35,846 bases of DNA, taken from the IMG/VR virus record IMGVR_UViG_2529293061_000007; one strand, 5' to 3'. Origin of the DNA: a virus (lineage: Duplodnaviria > Heunggongvirae > Uroviricota > Caudoviricetes). The notes below the pieces were generated by a model. It did not search any database, was not told the DNA's origin, and was given only the letters and a program-made list of their open reading frames with translations. The translations under genes were made by a program, and so were the position numbers. Shown here one piece after another: positions 1,369-16,840 of this stretch. Each line of letters starts with the position of its first letter. Positions within the stretch are counted from its first letter, which is position 1.

Positions 1369-1444
1369 GCCGATATAGCTCAGTTGGTAGAGCAGCGCAT
1401 TCGTAATGCGAAGGTCGTAGGTTCGACTCCTATTATCGGCACCA
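1369..1444 (+). tRNA. thrW: tRNA-Thr (anticodon CGU)
   Basis: 76-nt sequence GCCGATATAGCTCAGTTGGTAGAGCAGCGCATTCGTAATGCG...TCGACTCC...GGCACCA; anticodon loop TTCGTAA; T-loop GGTTCGA; encoded CCA end. Confidence 0.9.
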
Positions 1445-3516: not shown

Positions 3517-4043
3517 TTGCGTAACTCCGATAACTCGTTAAAGCGTTCCATAAACATCCCGTAGGCATGGCCCGGTGCCAGTGGAATCACGTTGAACATC
3601 TCTGTTGCCGGGATACCTTCCAGTACAGGCCAGAAAGAGCCATCATCAAGCCCGAGATCGCGGCGTTCGGTTGCCAGCATGATGAGATCGGCATATTTCA
3701 CGGGCGTACTCATAACTGGGGGTAACCCGTATTTCTCACGGATTACGGCGTCTATTTTTTCTTCCATTTGTTTATAGTCAGGAAGAAGGCGTTTCAGTGG
3801 TGCGGGAATGTCCTGGCAATACGCTTCTGTTGCATCATGCATTAACGCTTCAAAAGCAAATTCCTGCGGCACCAGCTGGCTGCAAAGAACCGCATGTTGG
3901 GCGACGCTGTAGAAGTGCGAAAGATGACCGGCAAAGCGACAGATATTTGAAAGGGAAACCGCGATATCGTTAATATCGATGTCGTCTTTATTTATCCTGT
4001 CATAATAAAAATGCTTCCCGGAAAAAGTTTTAATAAATGACAT
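3507..4043 (-). CDS. HD-domain phosphohydrolase (YfdR-like 5'-deoxynucleotidase family)
   Basis: His/Asp metal-binding motifs (...FAGHLSHFYSVAQHAV...LMHDATEAY...); likely start is ATG at 4041-4043 with GTGGAG RBS rather than the upstream GTG at 4070. Confidence 0.7.
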   Translation of the reverse strand: MSFIKTFSGKHFYYDRINKDDIDINDIAVSLSNICRFAGHLSHFYSVAQHAVLCSQLVPQEFAFEALMHDATEAYCQDIPAPLKRLLPDYKQMEEKIDAVIREKYGLPPVMSTPVKYADLIMLATERRDLGLDDGSFWPVLEGIPATEMFNVIPLAPGHAYGMFMERFNELSELRKCA

Positions 4044-4170
4044 TTTGTTCTCCACGTATATGCGCTGCACCGCGCTGAATTCTGGTAAAAAGAATCCCTC
4101 ACCATCCGGCGATTATTGAGTAAATTACGTTTCCATAAATGCCCCCGCAGGGGCATTTGCAGTAATGAAA

Positions 4171-4995
4171 TCAGGCGGTGAAAGTACCAATAAAGGTTTC
4201 TACTTTGCTGTCCTTGAATTTCTCAACAAGCAGATCACGAAATTCGTTAGCCATTTCTTCCTGCACCGCCTCCAGCTGAATAATGCGCAGAACCAGTACC
4301 GGACGATCGCCAGTGATAATGCTGAGGCGTAATTTAAACGGACGTTCTTTCAGACCTTCAAACGGAATGCATTTAAATTCAAATGCCACTGGCATAATGT
4401 CTTTGGTCTTCGCTTCGACAGACTCCATCAGGGAGCGTTTGCCGCTGAAGTCATTATCTTCAAAATCAGCGGTCTGGTTTGCTTCAATCGTGATTTTACG
4501 GACCGCCGCAGCCGCTTTTGTTGCCTGAATGGTGTCACCATTAGCATCAAAGCCCACAAGGTAGTCGGCCCAGTCTTCAATCCATTCTGCCAGTGATTTC
4601 TGGGAGTTACGCTCGCCATTAACAGACAACAGAGCAGAGAACGGTGCTGTCTTTTTCAGTTTGAGAGTGGCGGTGTTATCTGCGTGACCTGGTTCATCAA
4701 TAGTACCCAGGTTAAGCACACTGACGGCACGCATATTATCAGCATCGATAAAGCAGCGGGTGCCTTCATCTGCAAGATCTTTAGAATAACGGGTAAAGTC
4801 ATCGATGCTGGCAGTGGAAAGCGCACCACGGAAACGGAAGCGATTTAAATTAAATTTTTCCAGATCATGAATGCGGAAATTCTCAGGCAATGCCACAGCA
4901 TCGGCACCAATCTTACTGATAATTTCATTAACACCCTGAGCAGAAATAAGGGCATGGATTTGATTAATTGCGGTTGCGTCTAAGTTCTGAGACAT
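4171..4995 (-). CDS. DUF2303-family protein (YfdQ-like)
   Basis: 274-aa ORF; translation recalled as YfdQ-like; typical coding composition. Confidence 0.65.
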
Positions 4996-5560: not shown

Positions 5561-5860
5561 AAAAAGGACGGTCCCAGCCGTAAGCAAGGGTACAAACTGG
5601 TACCGCCAGGACTACACACAGCATAAAGTTGTGGTGCCGGGTGCCTCCCGGTGCCTGGCGAAGGTTGCACACCAGACGGGTGGGTATCCACAGAAGGTCG
5701 ACTGTCAGCCTCAACCTTAACCCGCGTGCGCTGAGCCGCATTCACCACAACGCTAAGGATTCTCTTTGGTTGAAAATACTTAGCTGTTATGTGCCTGTCT
5801 TTTCACCACTTCAGGCTCGGTGGTATCCTTTTAAGCCCGTATACATAAAAGGAAAATCAA

Positions 5861-13025: not shown

Positions 13026-13778
13026 ATGAACCTTGAAGCTTTACCAAAATATTACTCCCCAAAATCTCCAAAATTGAGTGATGACGCACCGGCGACAGGC
13101 TCGGGTGGTTTAACAATTACAGATGTGATGGCTGCGCAGGGGATGGTGCAGTCGAAAGCACCGCTTGGGTTTGCCTTATTCCTGGCAAAAGTTGGTGTTC
13201 AGGATCCTCAGTTTGCGATTGAAGGTCTGCTCAATTACGCGATGGGACTGGATAACCCGACATTGAACAAATTGAGTGAAGAAATCCGGTTACAGATCAT
13301 CCCTTACCTTGTGAATTTTGCCTTTGCTGATTATTCCAGGTCTGCGGCAAGTAAGGCTCGCTGTGAGCATTGTGCTGGTACTGGATTTCATAATGTATTG
13401 CGCGAGGTGGTGAAACACTCCAGAAGCGGGGAATCTGTTATCAAGGAAGAGTGGGTGAAGGAACTATGTCAGCATTGTCATGGTAAGGGAGAAGTCAGCA
13501 CAGCGTGCAGAGGGTGTAAGGGTAAAGGTATTGTCCTGGATGAAAAAAGGACCCGGCTTCATGGCACGCCTGTTTATAAGATTTGTGGGCGTTGCAATGG
13601 AAACCGATTTAGCCGTTTACCAACCACACTGGCGCGGAATCATGTCCAGAAGCTGGTACCAGACCTGACGGATTATCAGTGGTACAAAGGATATGCAGAT
13701 GTCATTGATAAACTGGTTACAAAGTGCTGGCAGGAAGAAGCATATGCAGAGACACAATTGAGAAAGGTGACAAGATAA
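13026..13778 (+). CDS. late-gene antitermination protein Q
   Basis: Cys-rich zinc-binding segment (CEHCAGTG...CQHCHGKG...CRGCKGKG...CGRCNG); immediately upstream of the lysis region; GGAG RBS. Confidence 0.8.
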   Translation: MNLEALPKYYSPKSPKLSDDAPATGSGGLTITDVMAAQGMVQSKAPLGFALFLAKVGVQDPQFAIEGLLNYAMGLDNPTLNKLSEEIRLQIIPYLVNFAFADYSRSAASKARCEHCAGTGFHNVLREVVKHSRSGESVIKEEWVKELCQHCHGKGEVSTACRGCKGKGIVLDEKRTRLHGTPVYKICGRCNGNRFSRLPTTLARNHVQKLVPDLTDYQWYKGYADVIDKLVTKCWQEEAYAETQLRKVTR

Positions 13779-13809
13779 ATGATTTTCGACGAAGATGGCG
13801 ACATGATAC

Positions 13810-13838
13810 TTGCATTTTTCAAAAAATCTGGATAAGAT
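13810..13838 (+). promoter_or_regulatory. candidate late promoter PR'
   Basis: TTGCAT (13810-13815), 17-nt spacer, TAAGAT (13833-13838), just downstream of Q. Confidence 0.35.
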
Positions 13839-13980
13839 TTTCTCAACGATGGGCTTTATGTATCTGCTGTTGATAACCTTCAAGAACTCGCCATTGAGCG
13901 GGTTTTTTATTGTGTAAAAACAGAATGACGGTATTAATTAGTAATATAATTATTCGACCATACAACTAGGGGTCGAAAAA

Positions 13981-14766
13981 ATGTATGTTTTTGAGTTAAT
14001 CAAGCCAGGCAGTAATCTTAAGTTTGAAAACAGAGAGTTAGAATGGACGTTTAATAACTTATTATCCCATTTAGAAACTGCATTTTATGATGCTAATGTA
14101 GCATTAAATTTATTCGAACAGGAAAGAACTAAGAATAACAGTAAATTCGATAATATTTCTCAGACATGGCAAGCTGATGTACAGAAACGACAAGCACTGG
14201 AAATGCTGGTTCGTAAAGAGTTTGGTTATCAACCTTATGAATATTCAGAACAGGTTTTTTCAGAGGTCGAGCTACGTCTAAAAAGAGAAAAATGGAATAA
14301 CGGTGAATATCCGTTGGCTCATCAACACAGATTGATCTTCTTACATGCAAAATCATTTCTCTACGCTTTGGATGCTATTGATAAATTTTTAAAGGTAATT
14401 TCAAAAGAAAATGGCGCGCCAGAGAACATTAAAAAATTGCATGAACAGCTTTCTAAAGACTTTCCGGATTTAAGAAAGGTAAGGAATTCAGCTCAACACA
14501 TGGAAGACAGAGTTCGTGGGCTTGGTGCAGAGAAAGAACCAAAGCCAATAAAACTCAAACCTGTAAATAATATTCATGTTGTTGCACCTCAGGGGGCATT
14601 GATGTTGAATAACTTATTCGGAACTAAATTTGGGTGCACTATGGCTGATGGCTATTATGGTGAAGTAGATATTTCGACAGAGTCTTTGGCAAAGTTGCAA
14701 AATTTAATCCAAAAAGTTTTTAATTCCTTCAGTTGGGAAGGACCAAAGCAACACCTTCCTCGATAA
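13981..14766 (+). CDS. AT-rich moron protein (261 aa) with two Rx4H motifs; candidate HEPN-type ribonuclease / Abi protein
   Basis: Visibly AT-rich codon usage versus flanks; motifs RLIFLH and RNSAQH; sits between Q and the holin (the stx position of Stx phages); terminator follows. Confidence 0.6.
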   Translation: MYVFELIKPGSNLKFENRELEWTFNNLLSHLETAFYDANVALNLFEQERTKNNSKFDNISQTWQADVQKRQALEMLVRKEFGYQPYEYSEQVFSEVELRLKREKWNNGEYPLAHQHRLIFLHAKSFLYALDAIDKFLKVISKENGAPENIKKLHEQLSKDFPDLRKVRNSAQHMEDRVRGLGAEKEPKPIKLKPVNNIHVVAPQGALMLNNLFGTKFGCTMADGYYGEVDISTESLAKLQNLIQKVFNSFSWEGPKQHLPR

Positions 14767-14783
14767 CATTTTCTTTTTTATTG

Positions 14784-14815
14784 AAAGCCGCCAAATAATT
14801 GGCGGCTTTTTTATT
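14784..14815 (+). terminator. intrinsic terminator after the Q-S moron
   Basis: Stem AAAGCCGCCAA / TTGGCGGCTTT with loop ATAA followed by a T-tract. Confidence 0.7.
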
Positions 14816-14855: not shown

Positions 14856-15182
14856 ATGCCTCATAACCCAAATACCTGGCTGGAGTTGGTCCAGAGCTGG
14901 TGGCGTGGAGACACGCCGCTGGGCGCAGTAATTATGTCGATCGTTATGGCTGGCTTGCGCATTGCCTATTTTGGCGGTGGTGGTGGCTGGAAGCGAAAAA
15001 CGCTCGAGATTTTGCTCTGTGGCGCTCTGACACTGACTTTTGCATCCGCTCTTGAGTATGTCGGATGGCCTAAATCACTTTCTGTTGCCATTGGTGGTGG
15101 GGTGGGGCTGATCGGTGTCGATGCTATTCGTGGGGCTGCAATGCGAGTAATCGGTAATAAATTTGGTAGCTCGAAGGAGTAA
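14856..15182 (+). CDS. holin (lambda S-like class)
   Basis: ATG at 14856 with GAGGTGAGAG RBS; about 108 aa with hydrophobic TM segments and charged C-terminus; directly upstream of the endolysin. Confidence 0.75.
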   Translation: MPHNPNTWLELVQSWWRGDTPLGAVIMSIVMAGLRIAYFGGGGGWKRKTLEILLCGALTLTFASALEYVGWPKSLSVAIGGGVGLIGVDAIRGAAMRVIGNKFGSSKE

Positions 15183-15185
15183 TTT

Positions 15186-15662
15186 ATGCAGGCTCTAAAT
15201 TCCCAGCGTAAAGCTTTCCTTGATATGGTGGCATGGTCAGAAGGAACGGATAACGGGCGACAACCGACACGTAACCACGGTTATGATGTTATTGTTGGTG
15301 GCGAACTGTTCACTGATTACTCCGATCACCCTCGCAAACTTGTCACGCTAAACCCCAAACTCAAATCAACAGCCGCCGGGCGTTATCAGCTTCTTTCACG
15401 CTGGTGGGATGCTTACCGTAAACAGCTTGGTTTGAAAGACTTCTCCCCCAAAAGCCAGGACGCAGTGGCATTGCAGCAGATTAAAGAGCGTGGCGCTTTA
15501 GCGATGATTGATCGCGGTGATATTCGTCAGGCTATCGACCGTTGCAGCAATATCTGGGCTTCACTGCCGGGGGCTGGTTACGGTCAGTTCGAGCATAAGG
15601 CTGACAGCCTGATTGCAAAATTTAAAGAAGCTGGCGGAACGGTCAGAGAGATGGAGGCATGA
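15186..15662 (+). CDS. R: endolysin, lambda R-type lytic transglycosylase
   Basis: Translation near-identical over long stretches to lambda R as recalled (...[55 protein letters not shown]...). Confidence 0.95.
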
Positions 15663-16126
15663 GCAGAGTCACCGCGATTATCTCCGCTCTGGTTATCTGC
15701 ATCATCGTCTGCCTGTCATGGTCTGTTAATCATTACCGTGACAACGCCATCACCTATAAAGACCAGCGCGATAAAAAAGTCAGTGAGCTGCAGCTGGCGA
15801 CCGCCACCATTACTGACATGCAGCAGCGCCAGCGTGATGCTGATGCACTTGATGCTAAATACACGAAGGAGTTAGCTGATGCGAAAGCTGAAAATGATGC
15901 TCTTCGGCGCAAGCTTGATAATGGTGGTAGGGTGCTCGTCAAAGGCAGATGTCCAGTGCCAGCCACAACAAAAGCCTCCGGCACCGCCAGCGTGGGCAAT
16001 GATGCCACCGTCGAACTCTCTCCAATTGCTGGACGAAACCTTCTCGGTATCAGATCCGGAATTATCAGAGATCAAGCATCATTGAGAGCGTTACAGGAAT
16101 ATATTGACACTCAGTGTCGGAAGTAA
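15659..16126 (+). CDS. Rz: i-spanin Rz
   Basis: N-terminal TM anchor, coiled-coil periplasmic domain; ATGA-coupled to R. Confidence 0.85.
15879..16085 (+). CDS. Rz1: o-spanin Rz1 (lipoprotein, embedded in Rz in the +1 frame)
   Basis: [21 protein letters not shown] lipobox; Pro-rich mature part; AAGGAG RBS; wholly inside Rz. Confidence 0.75.
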
Positions 16127-16231: not shown

Positions 16232-16840
16232 ATGGACTATTTTTACATAGCAACTAAATCGCAAAATCCTTGGGTTAAGTATAGGCCTTTGGCAGTAGGA
16301 GATTTAGCTAGCACCTCATTCCCAAATCCCTTTTTTAATTATTTCTTAAGTTCAAACATCCCTCCAATACCAGTAAATGTTAACGGGCATCTAACTGACT
16401 ATACGAGAATGCAGTGGCTTTATGGCCTAAAGACAGGGTCACTTACTACTAAGTGTTCTGTACAAGATATAGCGGCAGTTGGTCAAGAATTGGCTATGCA
16501 TTTTTGTAAATATACTAGAGAACTGATTTGGGAAGCCGTTCGAGTTGAATGTTACCCAAAAAAGCCTTCAAGACAGAAATGCTTATGGGTTTCACAAGGT
16601 GAAGAAAGTCTTCACTATTGGATTTCGCAGTTGGGATTGGGGGACAATCAGACTGTGTTCAGAGTTGAGTTGGATGGAGTTATACATGAGGCGAGTGATG
16701 AACATTTGATGAATGACGATATACCGTATGATATTGCCTTAGAAAAAGCTCATAAATATTGGAGTGGTGAAATAGTTGATCCGTTAAAAAAGGAAATACT
16801 TTTTGAAGGAAATATGCGGATTCTAGAGCACATTTTATAG
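16232..16840 (+). CDS. AT-rich moron protein (202 aa), function unknown
   Basis: Located after Rz/Rz1 (the lambda bor-region equivalent); AT-rich; terminator-like element follows; no family recognised. Confidence 0.55.
   Translation: MDYFYIATKSQNPWVKYRPLAVGDLASTSFPNPFFNYFLSSNIPPIPVNVNGHLTDYTRMQWLYGLKTGSLTTKCSVQDIAAVGQELAMHFCKYTRELIWEAVRVECYPKKPSRQKCLWVSQGEESLHYWISQLGLGDNQTVFRVELDGVIHEASDEHLMNDDIPYDIALEKAHKYWSGEIVDPLKKEILFEGNMRILEHIL

Follow-up and report, generated by a model that had tools for sequence, protein, structure and literature searches.

A moron between the Q and holin genes of an SfV-like Escherichia coli prophage encodes a candidate standalone HEPN-type ribonuclease

The window, that is the whole stretch of 35,846 nucleotides which we analysed, has the context of an SfV-like prophage of E. 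coli. The gene of the antiterminator Q (positions 13026–13778, plus strand; PF03589, E = 6.3e-54; phrog_127) is 96% identical to the Q region of SfV and Ayreon. It is followed, 3′ of the late promoter region, by a tR′-type intrinsic terminator on the same strand (13882–13907), which was found by a terminator scan and is annotated as terminator in SfV and Ayreon. This terminator is the last element common to SfV, Ayreon, mEp460, and the Stx2 phages. In blastn comparisons the homology to SfV breaks at position 13908 and picks up again at 14804. The 895 bp in between (13909–14803, plus strand), delimited by alignment with SfV and Ayreon as well as by composition, form an AT-rich cassette with a GC content of 0.350 (0.356 for its open reading frame), compared with 0.516 for the window, 0.467 for Q, and 0.51 for the region from the holin to Rz. 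The right flank is formed by the gene of a lambda-type holin (14856–15182 with the ATG at 14856, plus strand; PF05106, E = 4.3e-25; annotated by PGAP in JE86-ST05). Downstream of it are the genes of a glycoside-hydrolase-family endolysin (15186–15662), which has no Pfam match, and of an Rz-like lysis protein, both assigned by PGAP/SfV annotation.

Other phages carry other cargo at identical borders. In SfV orf47 and a DNA methyltransferase gene are found where the cassette is located here, Ayreon differs likewise, and in phiSTEC1575-Stx2k the same Q 3′ end and tR′ (92% identity) are followed by cargo, tRNAs, and the stx2k A and B genes. The site thus shows a presence/absence polymorphism. The original prediction placed an AT-rich gene at the cargo site between Q and the holin gene S and called this the stx-equivalent position; the composition and the flanking genes agree with the former, and the Stx2k phage shows that the latter is literally correct. 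In common with the known lambdoid cargo of this site (stx1/stx2, the orf48 methylase of SfV), the cassette uses the insertion point directly after tR′ and consists of a foreign gene rich in AT with a terminator between it and S, and stx2k in phiSTEC1575-Stx2k is driven by the same Q module. The cargo itself differs, being here a putative intracellular RNase in place of a methylase or of a toxin for export.

The single gene of the cassette (13981–14766, plus strand) has an ATG start after AGGGG and codes for a protein of 261 aa (WP_000289222.1). Upstream of it, alignments revealed a perfect –10 hexamer TATAAT (13945–13950, plus strand) within the 11-mer GTAATATAATT, which we regard as the putative moron promoter. 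The 11-mer is invariant in the diverged alleles of four other loci (L003, L076/L077, L079, and L081), and it is unchanged upstream of alleles of only 62–66% identity although the sequence around it has diverged. The –35 region is poor in the window; in three of the other loci –35-like elements are present upstream of the –10 box (TAGATA at 19 nt in L003, TAGATT at 18 nt in L076, and TGGATA at 18 nt in L079). Downstream of the gene the terminator scan identified an intrinsic terminator with a 12-bp stem, –18.7 kcal/mol, and a T-run (14783–14810, plus strand). The stem is specific for the cassette, and the T-run and the downstream sequence are common to SfV. Hairpin and T-run are found in all seven diverged alleles, with compensatory changes in the stem, and the moron's own terminator, as originally predicted, is supported. 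An Rfam scan of the interval gave only sub-threshold matches, which lie on the terminators. The probable role of the cassette terminator is to shield the holin gene from transcription starting at the moron promoter. The original prediction had also taken Q-modified polymerase to be the only one that reads this interval. This is incomplete, as the perfect –10 box is conserved across diverged alleles and makes expression in the lysogen likely. A foreign composition, the presence/absence polymorphism, a conserved –10 box as putative promoter, and a co-varying terminator are the marks of a moron, and we have hardly any doubt that the cassette is a real autonomous one.

The encoded protein belongs to phrog_5322 (PHROGs v4, function not annotated), which it matches over the full length (E = 4.7e-140; residues 1–261 on positions 1–259 of a profile of 259). 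The family is sizeable, as 988 representatives of 50%-identity clusters match at E ≤ 0.001. Pfam, NCBIfam, and PADLOC contain no model for it, neither its accession nor its PHROG nor a description of such a system turned up in the literature searched, and no experiments on any family member were found in the literature. A divergent homolog of 204 aa is encoded by the Marinitoga phage MPV1; it retains FPNLRYVRNSIAHFEDR and D-x3-K and is devoid of the coiled-coil arm described below. As a search seeded with this homolog gave only three matches, the family is isolated in sequence space. Two partial matches (L063 and L065) are degraded remnants.

The enterobacterial alleles, which form six allele groups with 38–67% identity, are located between Q and the holin gene in 16 of 16 loci examined, and the flanks of these loci comprise three unrelated Pfam families of Q and four families of holins. 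Such a fixed position, directly after Q and tR′ and in front of the holin in spite of three Q families and the divergence of the alleles, could mean that the gene is mainly the first, Q-antiterminated gene of the late operon and codes for an accessory nuclease, possibly still HEPN-like, which serves the phage during the burst by host RNA or tRNA shut-off or by exclusion of competitors and is not a defence of the lysogen. This is precisely how Stx is expressed from the site. We nevertheless judge this explanation as rather unlikely. The conserved –10 box and the own terminator are typical of a gene that is expressed apart from the late operon, and the fixed position can also arise by mosaic exchange of the flanking modules around a resident gene. 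In addition, relatives outside the Enterobacteriaceae are carried by chromosomal islands and, in marine bacteria such as Vibrio, Photobacterium, Pseudidiomarina, and Marinobacterium as well as others (among them the loci L082, L009, L005, L032, and L012), by integron cassettes, none of which has a late operon.

A conserved partner or antitoxin gene was searched for in 63 genome loci and none was found, nor is there a conserved small open reading frame alongside the gene in any context. The most widely shared neighbour cluster occurs in at most 8 of 61 loci, and 150 flanking proteins fall into 109 Pfam families. A conserved adjacent partner, as would define a two-gene system, is thus not seen. 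In Klebsiella prophages a tRNA-Thr gene, or tRNA-Asn and tRNA-Arg genes, lie between Q and the gene; an apparent open reading frame opposite the gene in the Klebsiella loci was rejected, as it corresponds to a tRNA gene read in antisense. Among the neighbours are an AbiU2 (HEPN) gene immediately next to a family member in Pseudomonas, AAA_21 and RloB genes, also in Pseudomonas, an AbiV cassette beside the family cassette in a Vibrio array, and DRT9, CBASS, Shedu, R-M, and MADS genes, all of them recorded as bare occurrences.

These contexts also bear on the possibility that the protein is a selfish or stress-related RNase toxin which is not aimed at phages and forms an addiction or dormancy module stabilising the cassette or the prophage. 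For HEPN RNases of integron cassettes a role in stress-induced dormancy has been proposed by Anantharaman et al. (PMC3710099), and this is a niche in which the family is found; in one Citrobacter Q–S interval a HicAB-type toxin–antitoxin pair is present as co-cargo. On the other hand, neither an antitoxin gene nor a small open reading frame accompanies the gene, and addiction is impossible for a solo toxin because there is no antidote. Moreover, about one-third of the tested integron cassettes of unknown function give phage resistance (bioRxiv 10.1101/2024.07.02.601719). We therefore assign a low probability to this explanation, below that of the late-phase nuclease.

The original prediction rested on two Rx4H motifs, RLIFLH at residues 117–122 and RNSAQH at residues 168–173, and both are indeed present. 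From the composition, a protein of this size is expected to contain 0.36 Rx4H and 0.028 RNx3H motifs by chance, and a single Rx4H is therefore unremarkable. The conservation among 272 relatives separates the two motifs. The first (codons 14329–14346, plus strand) is not conserved, since R117 is found in 76 relatives (28%) and H122 in 92 (34%), which is chance level; we reject it as a functional motif. The second (codons 14482–14499, plus strand) is nearly invariant and of the HEPN type: none of the other positions among the 261 is as well conserved as R168 and H173, each present in 268 of the 272 relatives, so that the homologs retain the pair of Arg and His on which the proposal depends. Behind the Arg, 235 relatives have N and 35 have D, E175, D176, and R177 just after the motif are nearly invariant, and in an alignment of 149 sequences reaching down to 25% identity H173 is the sole invariant column. 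As there is only one invariant His, a hemerythrin-like metal site was rejected. Upstream of the Rx4H motif, D131-x3-K135 (codons 14371–14385, plus strand) is conserved with D131 in 259 and K or R at position 135 in 252 of the 272 relatives, and this D-x3-K is present in the Marinitoga homolog as well. It is a candidate counterpart of the acidic HEPN motif, having D in place of E.

HEPN domains are described as four-helical up-down bundles of two alpha-hairpins with inserts (PMC3710099). [quoted passage not shown] R168 and H173 have the required spacing, and the residue between them that follows the Arg is polar. In an AlphaFold2 model computed from the 149 sequences (pLDDT 97.7, pTM 0.91) the motif ends a helix assigned to the core and shows the expected distortion, as helix 164–172 is broken at the non-helical H173 and continues with helix 174–178. 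The predicted core would be a four-helix up-down bundle of the helices ∼18–47, 112–142 (with D131-x3-K135), 149–172 (leading into the Rx4H motif), and the C-terminal helix 233–248. To this core the model adds a coiled-coil arm (∼48–106) and a small beta subdomain (∼181–230 and both termini); the predicted inserts thus lie between helices 1 and 2 and between helices 3 and 4, whereas the usual HEPN insert lies between helices 2 and 3.

The bundle anticipated by the original prediction is thus modelled in a form compatible with HEPN, but the proposed Foldseek check gave no match below E = 0.001 in the PDB, and generic bundles match as well. Generic bundles and HPt domains, the latter likewise with an exposed conserved His, rank first among the structural matches; the C-terminal domain of KNTase (kanamycin nucleotidyltransferase), Csx1, and Csm6 are in the list too. 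The structural matches do not separate HEPN from generic four-helix bundles. The profile searches were likewise negative: at E up to 10 no HEPN model came up when the protein was scanned against Pfam, NCBIfam, and PADLOC, 47 relatives, distant members, and fragments of the core gave no informative match in Pfam, sequence and profile searches of the PDB returned no HEPN chain but noise (choline kinase, SRP54), and hhalign against the single sequences of Tha-1, AbiU2, and AbiV yielded probabilities below 4% each.

One could thus suppose that the protein is a non-catalytic helical bundle with a binding, scaffold, regulatory, or anti-defence function, in which the Arg/His patch binds a ligand or partner and the likeness to HEPN is convergent or superficial. 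The generic nature of the best structural matches and the missing HEPN match would fit, and so would the H-x-E-D-R extension of this family, which to our knowledge is not a described HEPN feature. The combination of the canonical R-[ND]-x3-H with the upstream D-x3-K (PMC3710099) speaks against it, as do the absence of a kinase, response regulator, or other conserved partner and the life as a mobile cassette beside Abi, R-M, and CBASS genes, which suits toxins better than scaffolds. We consider this explanation unlikely, although of the alternatives it deserves the most attention. Most likely the family is a new branch of the HEPN superfamily made up of standalone proteins, and on balance we favour an HEPN-type RNase, with both the membership and the chemistry deduced from motif and model.

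Among the known systems the closest in organization is HepS (STM14_3211) of Salmonella Gifsy-1, a solo HEPN abortive-infection anticodon nuclease which acts without any partner (PMC13043305). Both are single proteins encoded at an accessory locus of a lambdoid prophage with a canonical Rx4H and without a partner or inhibitor gene, and the members of both families are mostly standalone and often prophage-borne. No sequence relation came to light in the searches made here, in which the family profile matched no PDB chain. Compared by description, HepS family proteins are smaller than 250 aa with the motif near residue 100, in contrast to 261 aa and residues 168–173 here, and the coiled-coil arm and beta subdomain set the phrog_5322 family apart. 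Tha-1 and Tha-2 from S. aureus prophages (PMC11087260) are prophage HEPN RNases with an RNSxxH-type motif (RNSIMH in Tha-1), and Tha is expressed in the lysogen without being toxic at rest. Like HepS, which is likewise non-toxic at rest, it is triggered by phage tail proteins (PMC13043305; PMC11087260). However, Tha is restrained by the cognate inhibitor Ith, encoded in an antisense operon of which no counterpart is seen at the 261-aa gene, it resides in the cI operon and not between Q and the holin, and the hhalign probability is 0.1%. The lactococcal and other HEPN Abi proteins encoded by one gene, AbiV (PF18728), AbiU2 (PF18734), and AbiD/F (PF07751), are also standalone proteins of ∼200–350 aa with Rx4-6H-type sites on mobile elements; there is no Pfam or PADLOC match to them, and hhalign to single AbiU2 and AbiV sequences was negative. 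The HEPN protein of an integron cassette (Vpc_cass2, PDB 3jrt; PMC3710099) shares with the family the helix distortion at the Rx4-6H motif and the niche of gammaproteobacterial integron cassettes, but it has 166 aa, only 10–11% identity, and no profile match. Homology to it is unproven because generic bundles score equally.

Taking these observations together, our best reading is that the cassette is an autonomous moron encoding a standalone, probably HEPN, RNase of the abortive-infection type, to which as a whole we give a probability of about 0.5. An anti-phage or abortive-infection role as such, suggested by the neighbours and the known HEPN systems, has in our estimate roughly even odds or slightly less. 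According to this reading a unit of sigma-70 –10 box, one open reading frame, and intrinsic terminator is inserted just behind tR′, where the late operon begins. A low level of protein would be made in the lysogen from the own promoter and may be kept inactive as an oligomer, until it is activated by a cue of infection, for which the arm or the beta subdomain would be the sensor. The active protein would cut RNA (tRNA or mRNA) in a metal-free reaction using H173 and R168 with N169, and the cutting would lead to cell arrest and abort the infection. The terminator would keep moron transcripts off the holin gene. Once the prophage is induced, polymerase modified by Q would pass both terminators, and in this way the gene would also be the first late gene.

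A bolder variant makes the position behind tR′ part of the mechanism. With basal expression in the lysogen and a burst at late onset, the protein would be an RNase for exclusion of kin or competitors in the phage's own lytic cycle, and the phage-borne tRNAs of the Klebsiella prophages mentioned above might be cleavage-resistant replacements, so that an anticodon nuclease and its tRNA antidote would be combined at the stx site. We regard this as very improbable.

The principle is not new, as solo HEPN defence proteins are already known with HepS, AbiV, and AbiU2, and with Tha alongside its inhibitor Ith. If our reading is true, the family would add a sizeable group of HEPN-type effectors, with about 1,000 cluster representatives at 50% identity, that has no Pfam, NCBIfam, or PADLOC model, and it would be the recurrent occupant of the Shiga-toxin site in enterobacterial lambdoid prophages. 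It would offer a single-gene candidate anti-phage or abortive-infection system with R168A, N169A, and H173A as the obvious mutants. Prophage morons and chromosomal-integron cassettes would be two vehicles of one effector, and the locus would lend itself as a model of the tolerance for a potentially lethal RNase gene at the start of a late operon.

The interval between the antiterminator gene Q (13026–13778; PF03589, 6e-54) and the gene of a lambda-type holin (PF05106, ATG at 14856) contains a single long open reading frame on the plus strand (13981–14766), which codes for a protein of 261 amino acids and whose ATG is preceded by AGGGG. As proposed in the original prediction, this gene is AT-rich: the GC content is 0.356 for the reading frame and 0.350 for the enclosing 895 bp, compared to 0.516 for the window, 0.467 for Q and 0.51 for the lysis genes. 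An endolysin of the glycoside-hydrolase-family type (15186–15662) and an Rz-like lysis protein (15659–16126) follow downstream of the holin; both are named from the PGAP and SfV annotations, and Pfam gave no match for either. A terminator scan placed intrinsic terminators on both sides of the gene (13882–13907 and 14783–14810), and Rfam detected no RNA family in the interval, with sub-threshold matches on the terminators only. Like SfV, the prophage combines a contractile tail with early and lysis modules of lambdoid type; it is probably integrated at tRNA-Thr beside proA, and the interval is nearly identical in 22 of 5,426 complete E. coli genomes (at least 98.3% identity among the 20 matches listed), where the protein, WP_000289222.1, is annotated as ‘hypothetical protein’.

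Two further features of the prophage may be mentioned here. At the left end a tRNA-Thr (CGU) gene (1369–1444, plus strand) adjoins the integrase, as in E. coli JE86-ST05 with its prophage beside proA, and probably serves as the attachment site. Another AT-rich cargo gene (16232–16840, plus strand, 202 amino acids, GC 0.38) codes for a DUF2441 protein (PF10386, 2.6e-10; phrog_9842), for which PADLOC gave no match; it separates Rz from the HNH/terminase genes and is located immediately upstream of the packaging module. In phi80 the site between Rz and HNH/terminase is occupied by the Tai tail-assembly-inhibition defence genes (PMC11364771).

The borders of the cassette were defined by comparison with related phages. 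In blastn searches the DNA of SfV and Ayreon is 96% identical through Q up to position 13908, directly after the first terminator, and the identity to SfV restarts at 14804 within the T-run of the second. Between these same borders SfV carries orf47 and a DNA methyltransferase, and Ayreon several small genes with one terminator each. Phage phiSTEC1575-Stx2k has the same MTase-LexA-RusA-KilA-N-DUF968-Q module and a Q/tR′ sequence that is 92% identical at its 3′ part, followed by cargo, three tRNAs and then stx2k A/B. Because other phages, including this stx2k phage, have different cargo between common insertion borders, the position was correctly described as equivalent to that of stx.

We compared the signals of the cassette across twelve enterobacterial copies with protein identities of 38–67%. 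In the E. coli copy of the window as well as in Leclercia, Citrobacter and Enterobacter the tR′ hairpin is followed after ∼40 nt by GTAATATAATT and after a further 25–30 nt by the ATG. This 11-mer contains a perfect −10 box and is invariant in these copies while the surrounding sequence has diverged. A −35-like element (TAGATA, TAGATT or TGGATA) is located 18–19 nt upstream in three of these lineages; the −35 of the window itself is poor. Downstream of every allele compared there is a GC-rich hairpin with a T-run (−12 to −18.7 kcal/mol), whose stem varies by compensatory changes (GCCGCC/GGCGGC, GCTACC/GGTAGC, GCCACT/AGTGGC). Morons are classically defined by a conserved promoter element together with a co-varying terminator, and judged from its sequence the cassette is an autonomous transcription unit, that is, a moron with a putative promoter. 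These two elements argue that the gene is expressed from the predicted promoter without Q as well; thus the earlier statement that the interval is read by Q-modified polymerase would have to lose its ‘only’. The second terminator would shield the holin gene from constitutive moron transcription. In addition, a 7-bp inverted repeat (TTCGACC...GGTCGAA, 13953–13977, plus strand) directly upstream of the ATG overlaps the Shine–Dalgarno sequence. A comparable hairpin is present in the Leclercia allele, where a C-G pair is replaced by T-A as a compensatory change (two sequences compared). The repeat may hide the Shine–Dalgarno sequence in transcripts reading through from the late promoter pR′ and leave it accessible in those starting at the −10 box of the moron.

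The gene product had been suggested to be a HEPN-like ribonuclease on the basis of two Rx4H motifs. By chance alone, 0.36 Rx4H motifs would be expected in a protein of this composition, and among 272 aligned relatives the first motif (RLIFLH, 117–122) behaves accordingly, with R117 in 76 and H122 in 92 sequences. The second (RNSAQH, 168–173) stands: R168 and H173 are each found in 268 of the 272 relatives and rank as the two most conserved of the 261 positions, and the rare relatives without them are truncated or degenerate. In an alignment of 149 sequences reaching down to 25% identity H173 is the sole invariant column. R168 is followed by asparagine (235 of 272) or aspartate (35) and hardly any other residue, E175, D176 and R177 are near-invariant, and the long helix preceding the motif harbors a D-x3-K/R element (D131 in 259/272, K/R135 in 252/272). 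Even the 204-amino-acid homolog of the Marinitoga phage MPV1 (Thermotogae) keeps FPNLRYVRNSIAHFEDR and the D-x3-K, as KLDMCVK, but is devoid of residues ∼48–98. This homolog, gp37 (3911–4525 of its locus), is located between the tape-measure and tail genes.

[quoted passage not shown] 2013, PMC3710099). The R-[N/D]-x3-H motif and D131-x3-K/R135 match these sequence features. With 47 sequences AlphaFold yielded a pLDDT of 88.7 and a low-confidence coil at residues 161–190; with 149 diverse sequences the values rose to a pLDDT of 97.7 and a pTM of 0.91, and the helices (18–81, 89–106, 112–142, 149–160, 164–172 and 174–178) break exactly at H173. The N terminus, residues 181–230 and 257–259 form a small sheet, and a C-terminal helix spans 233–248. 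Combining this model with the Marinitoga deletion, we infer a core bundle of helices ∼18–47, 112–142, 149–172 and 233–248, a coiled-coil arm (∼48–106) and a beta subdomain inserted after the motif; gp37, as a minimal homolog without the arm, would naturally define the family core.

The predicted fold fits a HEPN protein without being proof of one, as the structural matches are non-specific, with the C-terminal domain of kanamycin nucleotidyltransferase, Csx1-Crn2 and Csm6 in the lower ranks, and Foldseek returned no significant match in the PDB. Pfam, NCBIfam and PADLOC assigned the protein to no named HEPN family, nor did Pfam for 47 relatives, fragments and distant members; phmmer and profile searches of the PDB and hhalign against single sequences of Tha-1, AbiU2 and AbiV gave no link, so that HEPN membership is demonstrated by none of the profile methods run. 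The sole family assignment is phrog_5322, ‘unknown function’, and a search seeded with the divergent Marinitoga member retrieved three proteins only, which shows how isolated the family is in sequence space. The non-specific fold matches and the missing HEPN profile match would also suit a bundle without catalytic activity, in which the Arg/His patch would serve for binding. Nevertheless, we consider a putative HEPN-type RNase the most likely reading, with a probability of about 0.65, based on the second motif, the D-x3-K upstream of it, the class of the predicted fold and the genomic lifestyle; the suggested RNase thus keeps its second motif and a suitable fold, whereas its first motif is spurious and a profile link is missing. 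The family would be new to annotation, of a kind that is already known.

The family comprises 375 clusters at 90% identity, and 988 representatives of 50%-identity clusters match its profile (E ≤ 0.001). Nearly all members are single-domain proteins of ∼260 amino acids, mostly from Proteobacteria. No conserved neighbour, partner or antitoxin gene was found in 63 genomes, where 150 flanking proteins match 109 Pfam families. At every place examined in Enterobacteriaceae (the window, Leclercia, two Citrobacter lineages, four Klebsiella prophages, Enterobacter and a 51%-identical E. coli allele) the gene lies between Q and holin, although the adjacent Q genes fall into three unrelated Pfam families (PF03589, PF06323 and PF06530/DUF1133), four families of holin are represented, and the packaging modules are not alike either. 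This strict Q-adjacent position could be taken to mean a late-phase nuclease serving the phage itself, against which speak the cassette's own putative promoter and terminator and the non-phage contexts of the family.

In the four Klebsiella prophages (L070–L073, about 5620–5790) tRNA-Thr UGU, or tRNA-Asn and tRNA-Arg UCU, lie between Q and the family gene, resembling the tRNAs upstream of stx; the opposite-strand ‘genes’ of 80–86 amino acids in these loci are antisense of the tRNAs and not genes. One Citrobacter prophage (L076, 6020–6653, minus strand) has further cargo behind the family gene: a gene for a HicB-like antitoxin and a 60-amino-acid opposite-strand ORF, probably a HicAB pair.

The copies of marine Gammaproteobacteria are integron cassettes. 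In V. parahaemolyticus (L082, 1–9500) the gene lies between two of twelve attC-like repeats (ATAACAAA...GCGTTA), and in Photobacterium, Pseudidiomarina, Marinobacterium, Oceanisphaera and an uncultured gammaproteobacterium comparable repeats are located on both sides of the gene or next to it. The twelve repeats of the chromosomal V. parahaemolyticus array are spaced by 480–930 bp, its cassettes include glyoxalase, HEPN_AbiV, GNAT and PNPOx genes besides the family gene, and beyond the array come a group II intron reverse transcriptase gene and one that is SMC/AAA_15-like. When integron cassettes of unknown function were tested, about one third, among them an AbiV cassette, conferred phage resistance (bioRxiv 10.1101/2024.07.02.601719). 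In Pseudomonas parafulva (L083, 6064–11796) a HEPN_AbiU2 gene is located immediately upstream of the family gene and an AAA_21 and RloB pair two genes downstream; this element also has a DUF927 primase-like gene and the appearance of a small defence island. Elsewhere PADLOC detected DRT9, a CBASS cyclase with effectors, Shedu, PD-T4-6, R-M methylases and MADS parts among the flanking genes. As raw occurrences these neighbours are only suggestive of a defence association, and a stress or dormancy toxin whose target is not phages is a further explanation. In Shewanella kaireitica (L046, 4613–5376) a few kb separate the family gene from two identical 82-nt tRNA-like copies, which are spaced by 458 bp and have three 70-nt tandem repeats after them.

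We suggest that the family protein would be a standalone HEPN-type RNase that the lysogen would make from the promoter of the moron and that would be inactive at rest; upon a phage cue it would be activated, cut RNA via H173, R168 and N169 and thereby arrest the infected cell. We infer every step of this scheme that goes beyond a helical bundle with a conserved motif. Two prophage HEPN proteins that have been studied experimentally behave in the proposed way. HepS of Gifsy-1, which has no partner gene, forms a tetramer with occluded sites; its trigger is the tail-tip protein J, and it cuts tRNAs in their anticodon loops (PMC13043305). In S. aureus phages, Tha is a non-specific RNase triggered by minor tail proteins and, unlike HepS, is restrained by a cognate inhibitor, Ith (PMC11087260). 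The main value of the family lies in offering a clean single-gene candidate that is a recurrent occupant of the Shiga-toxin site.
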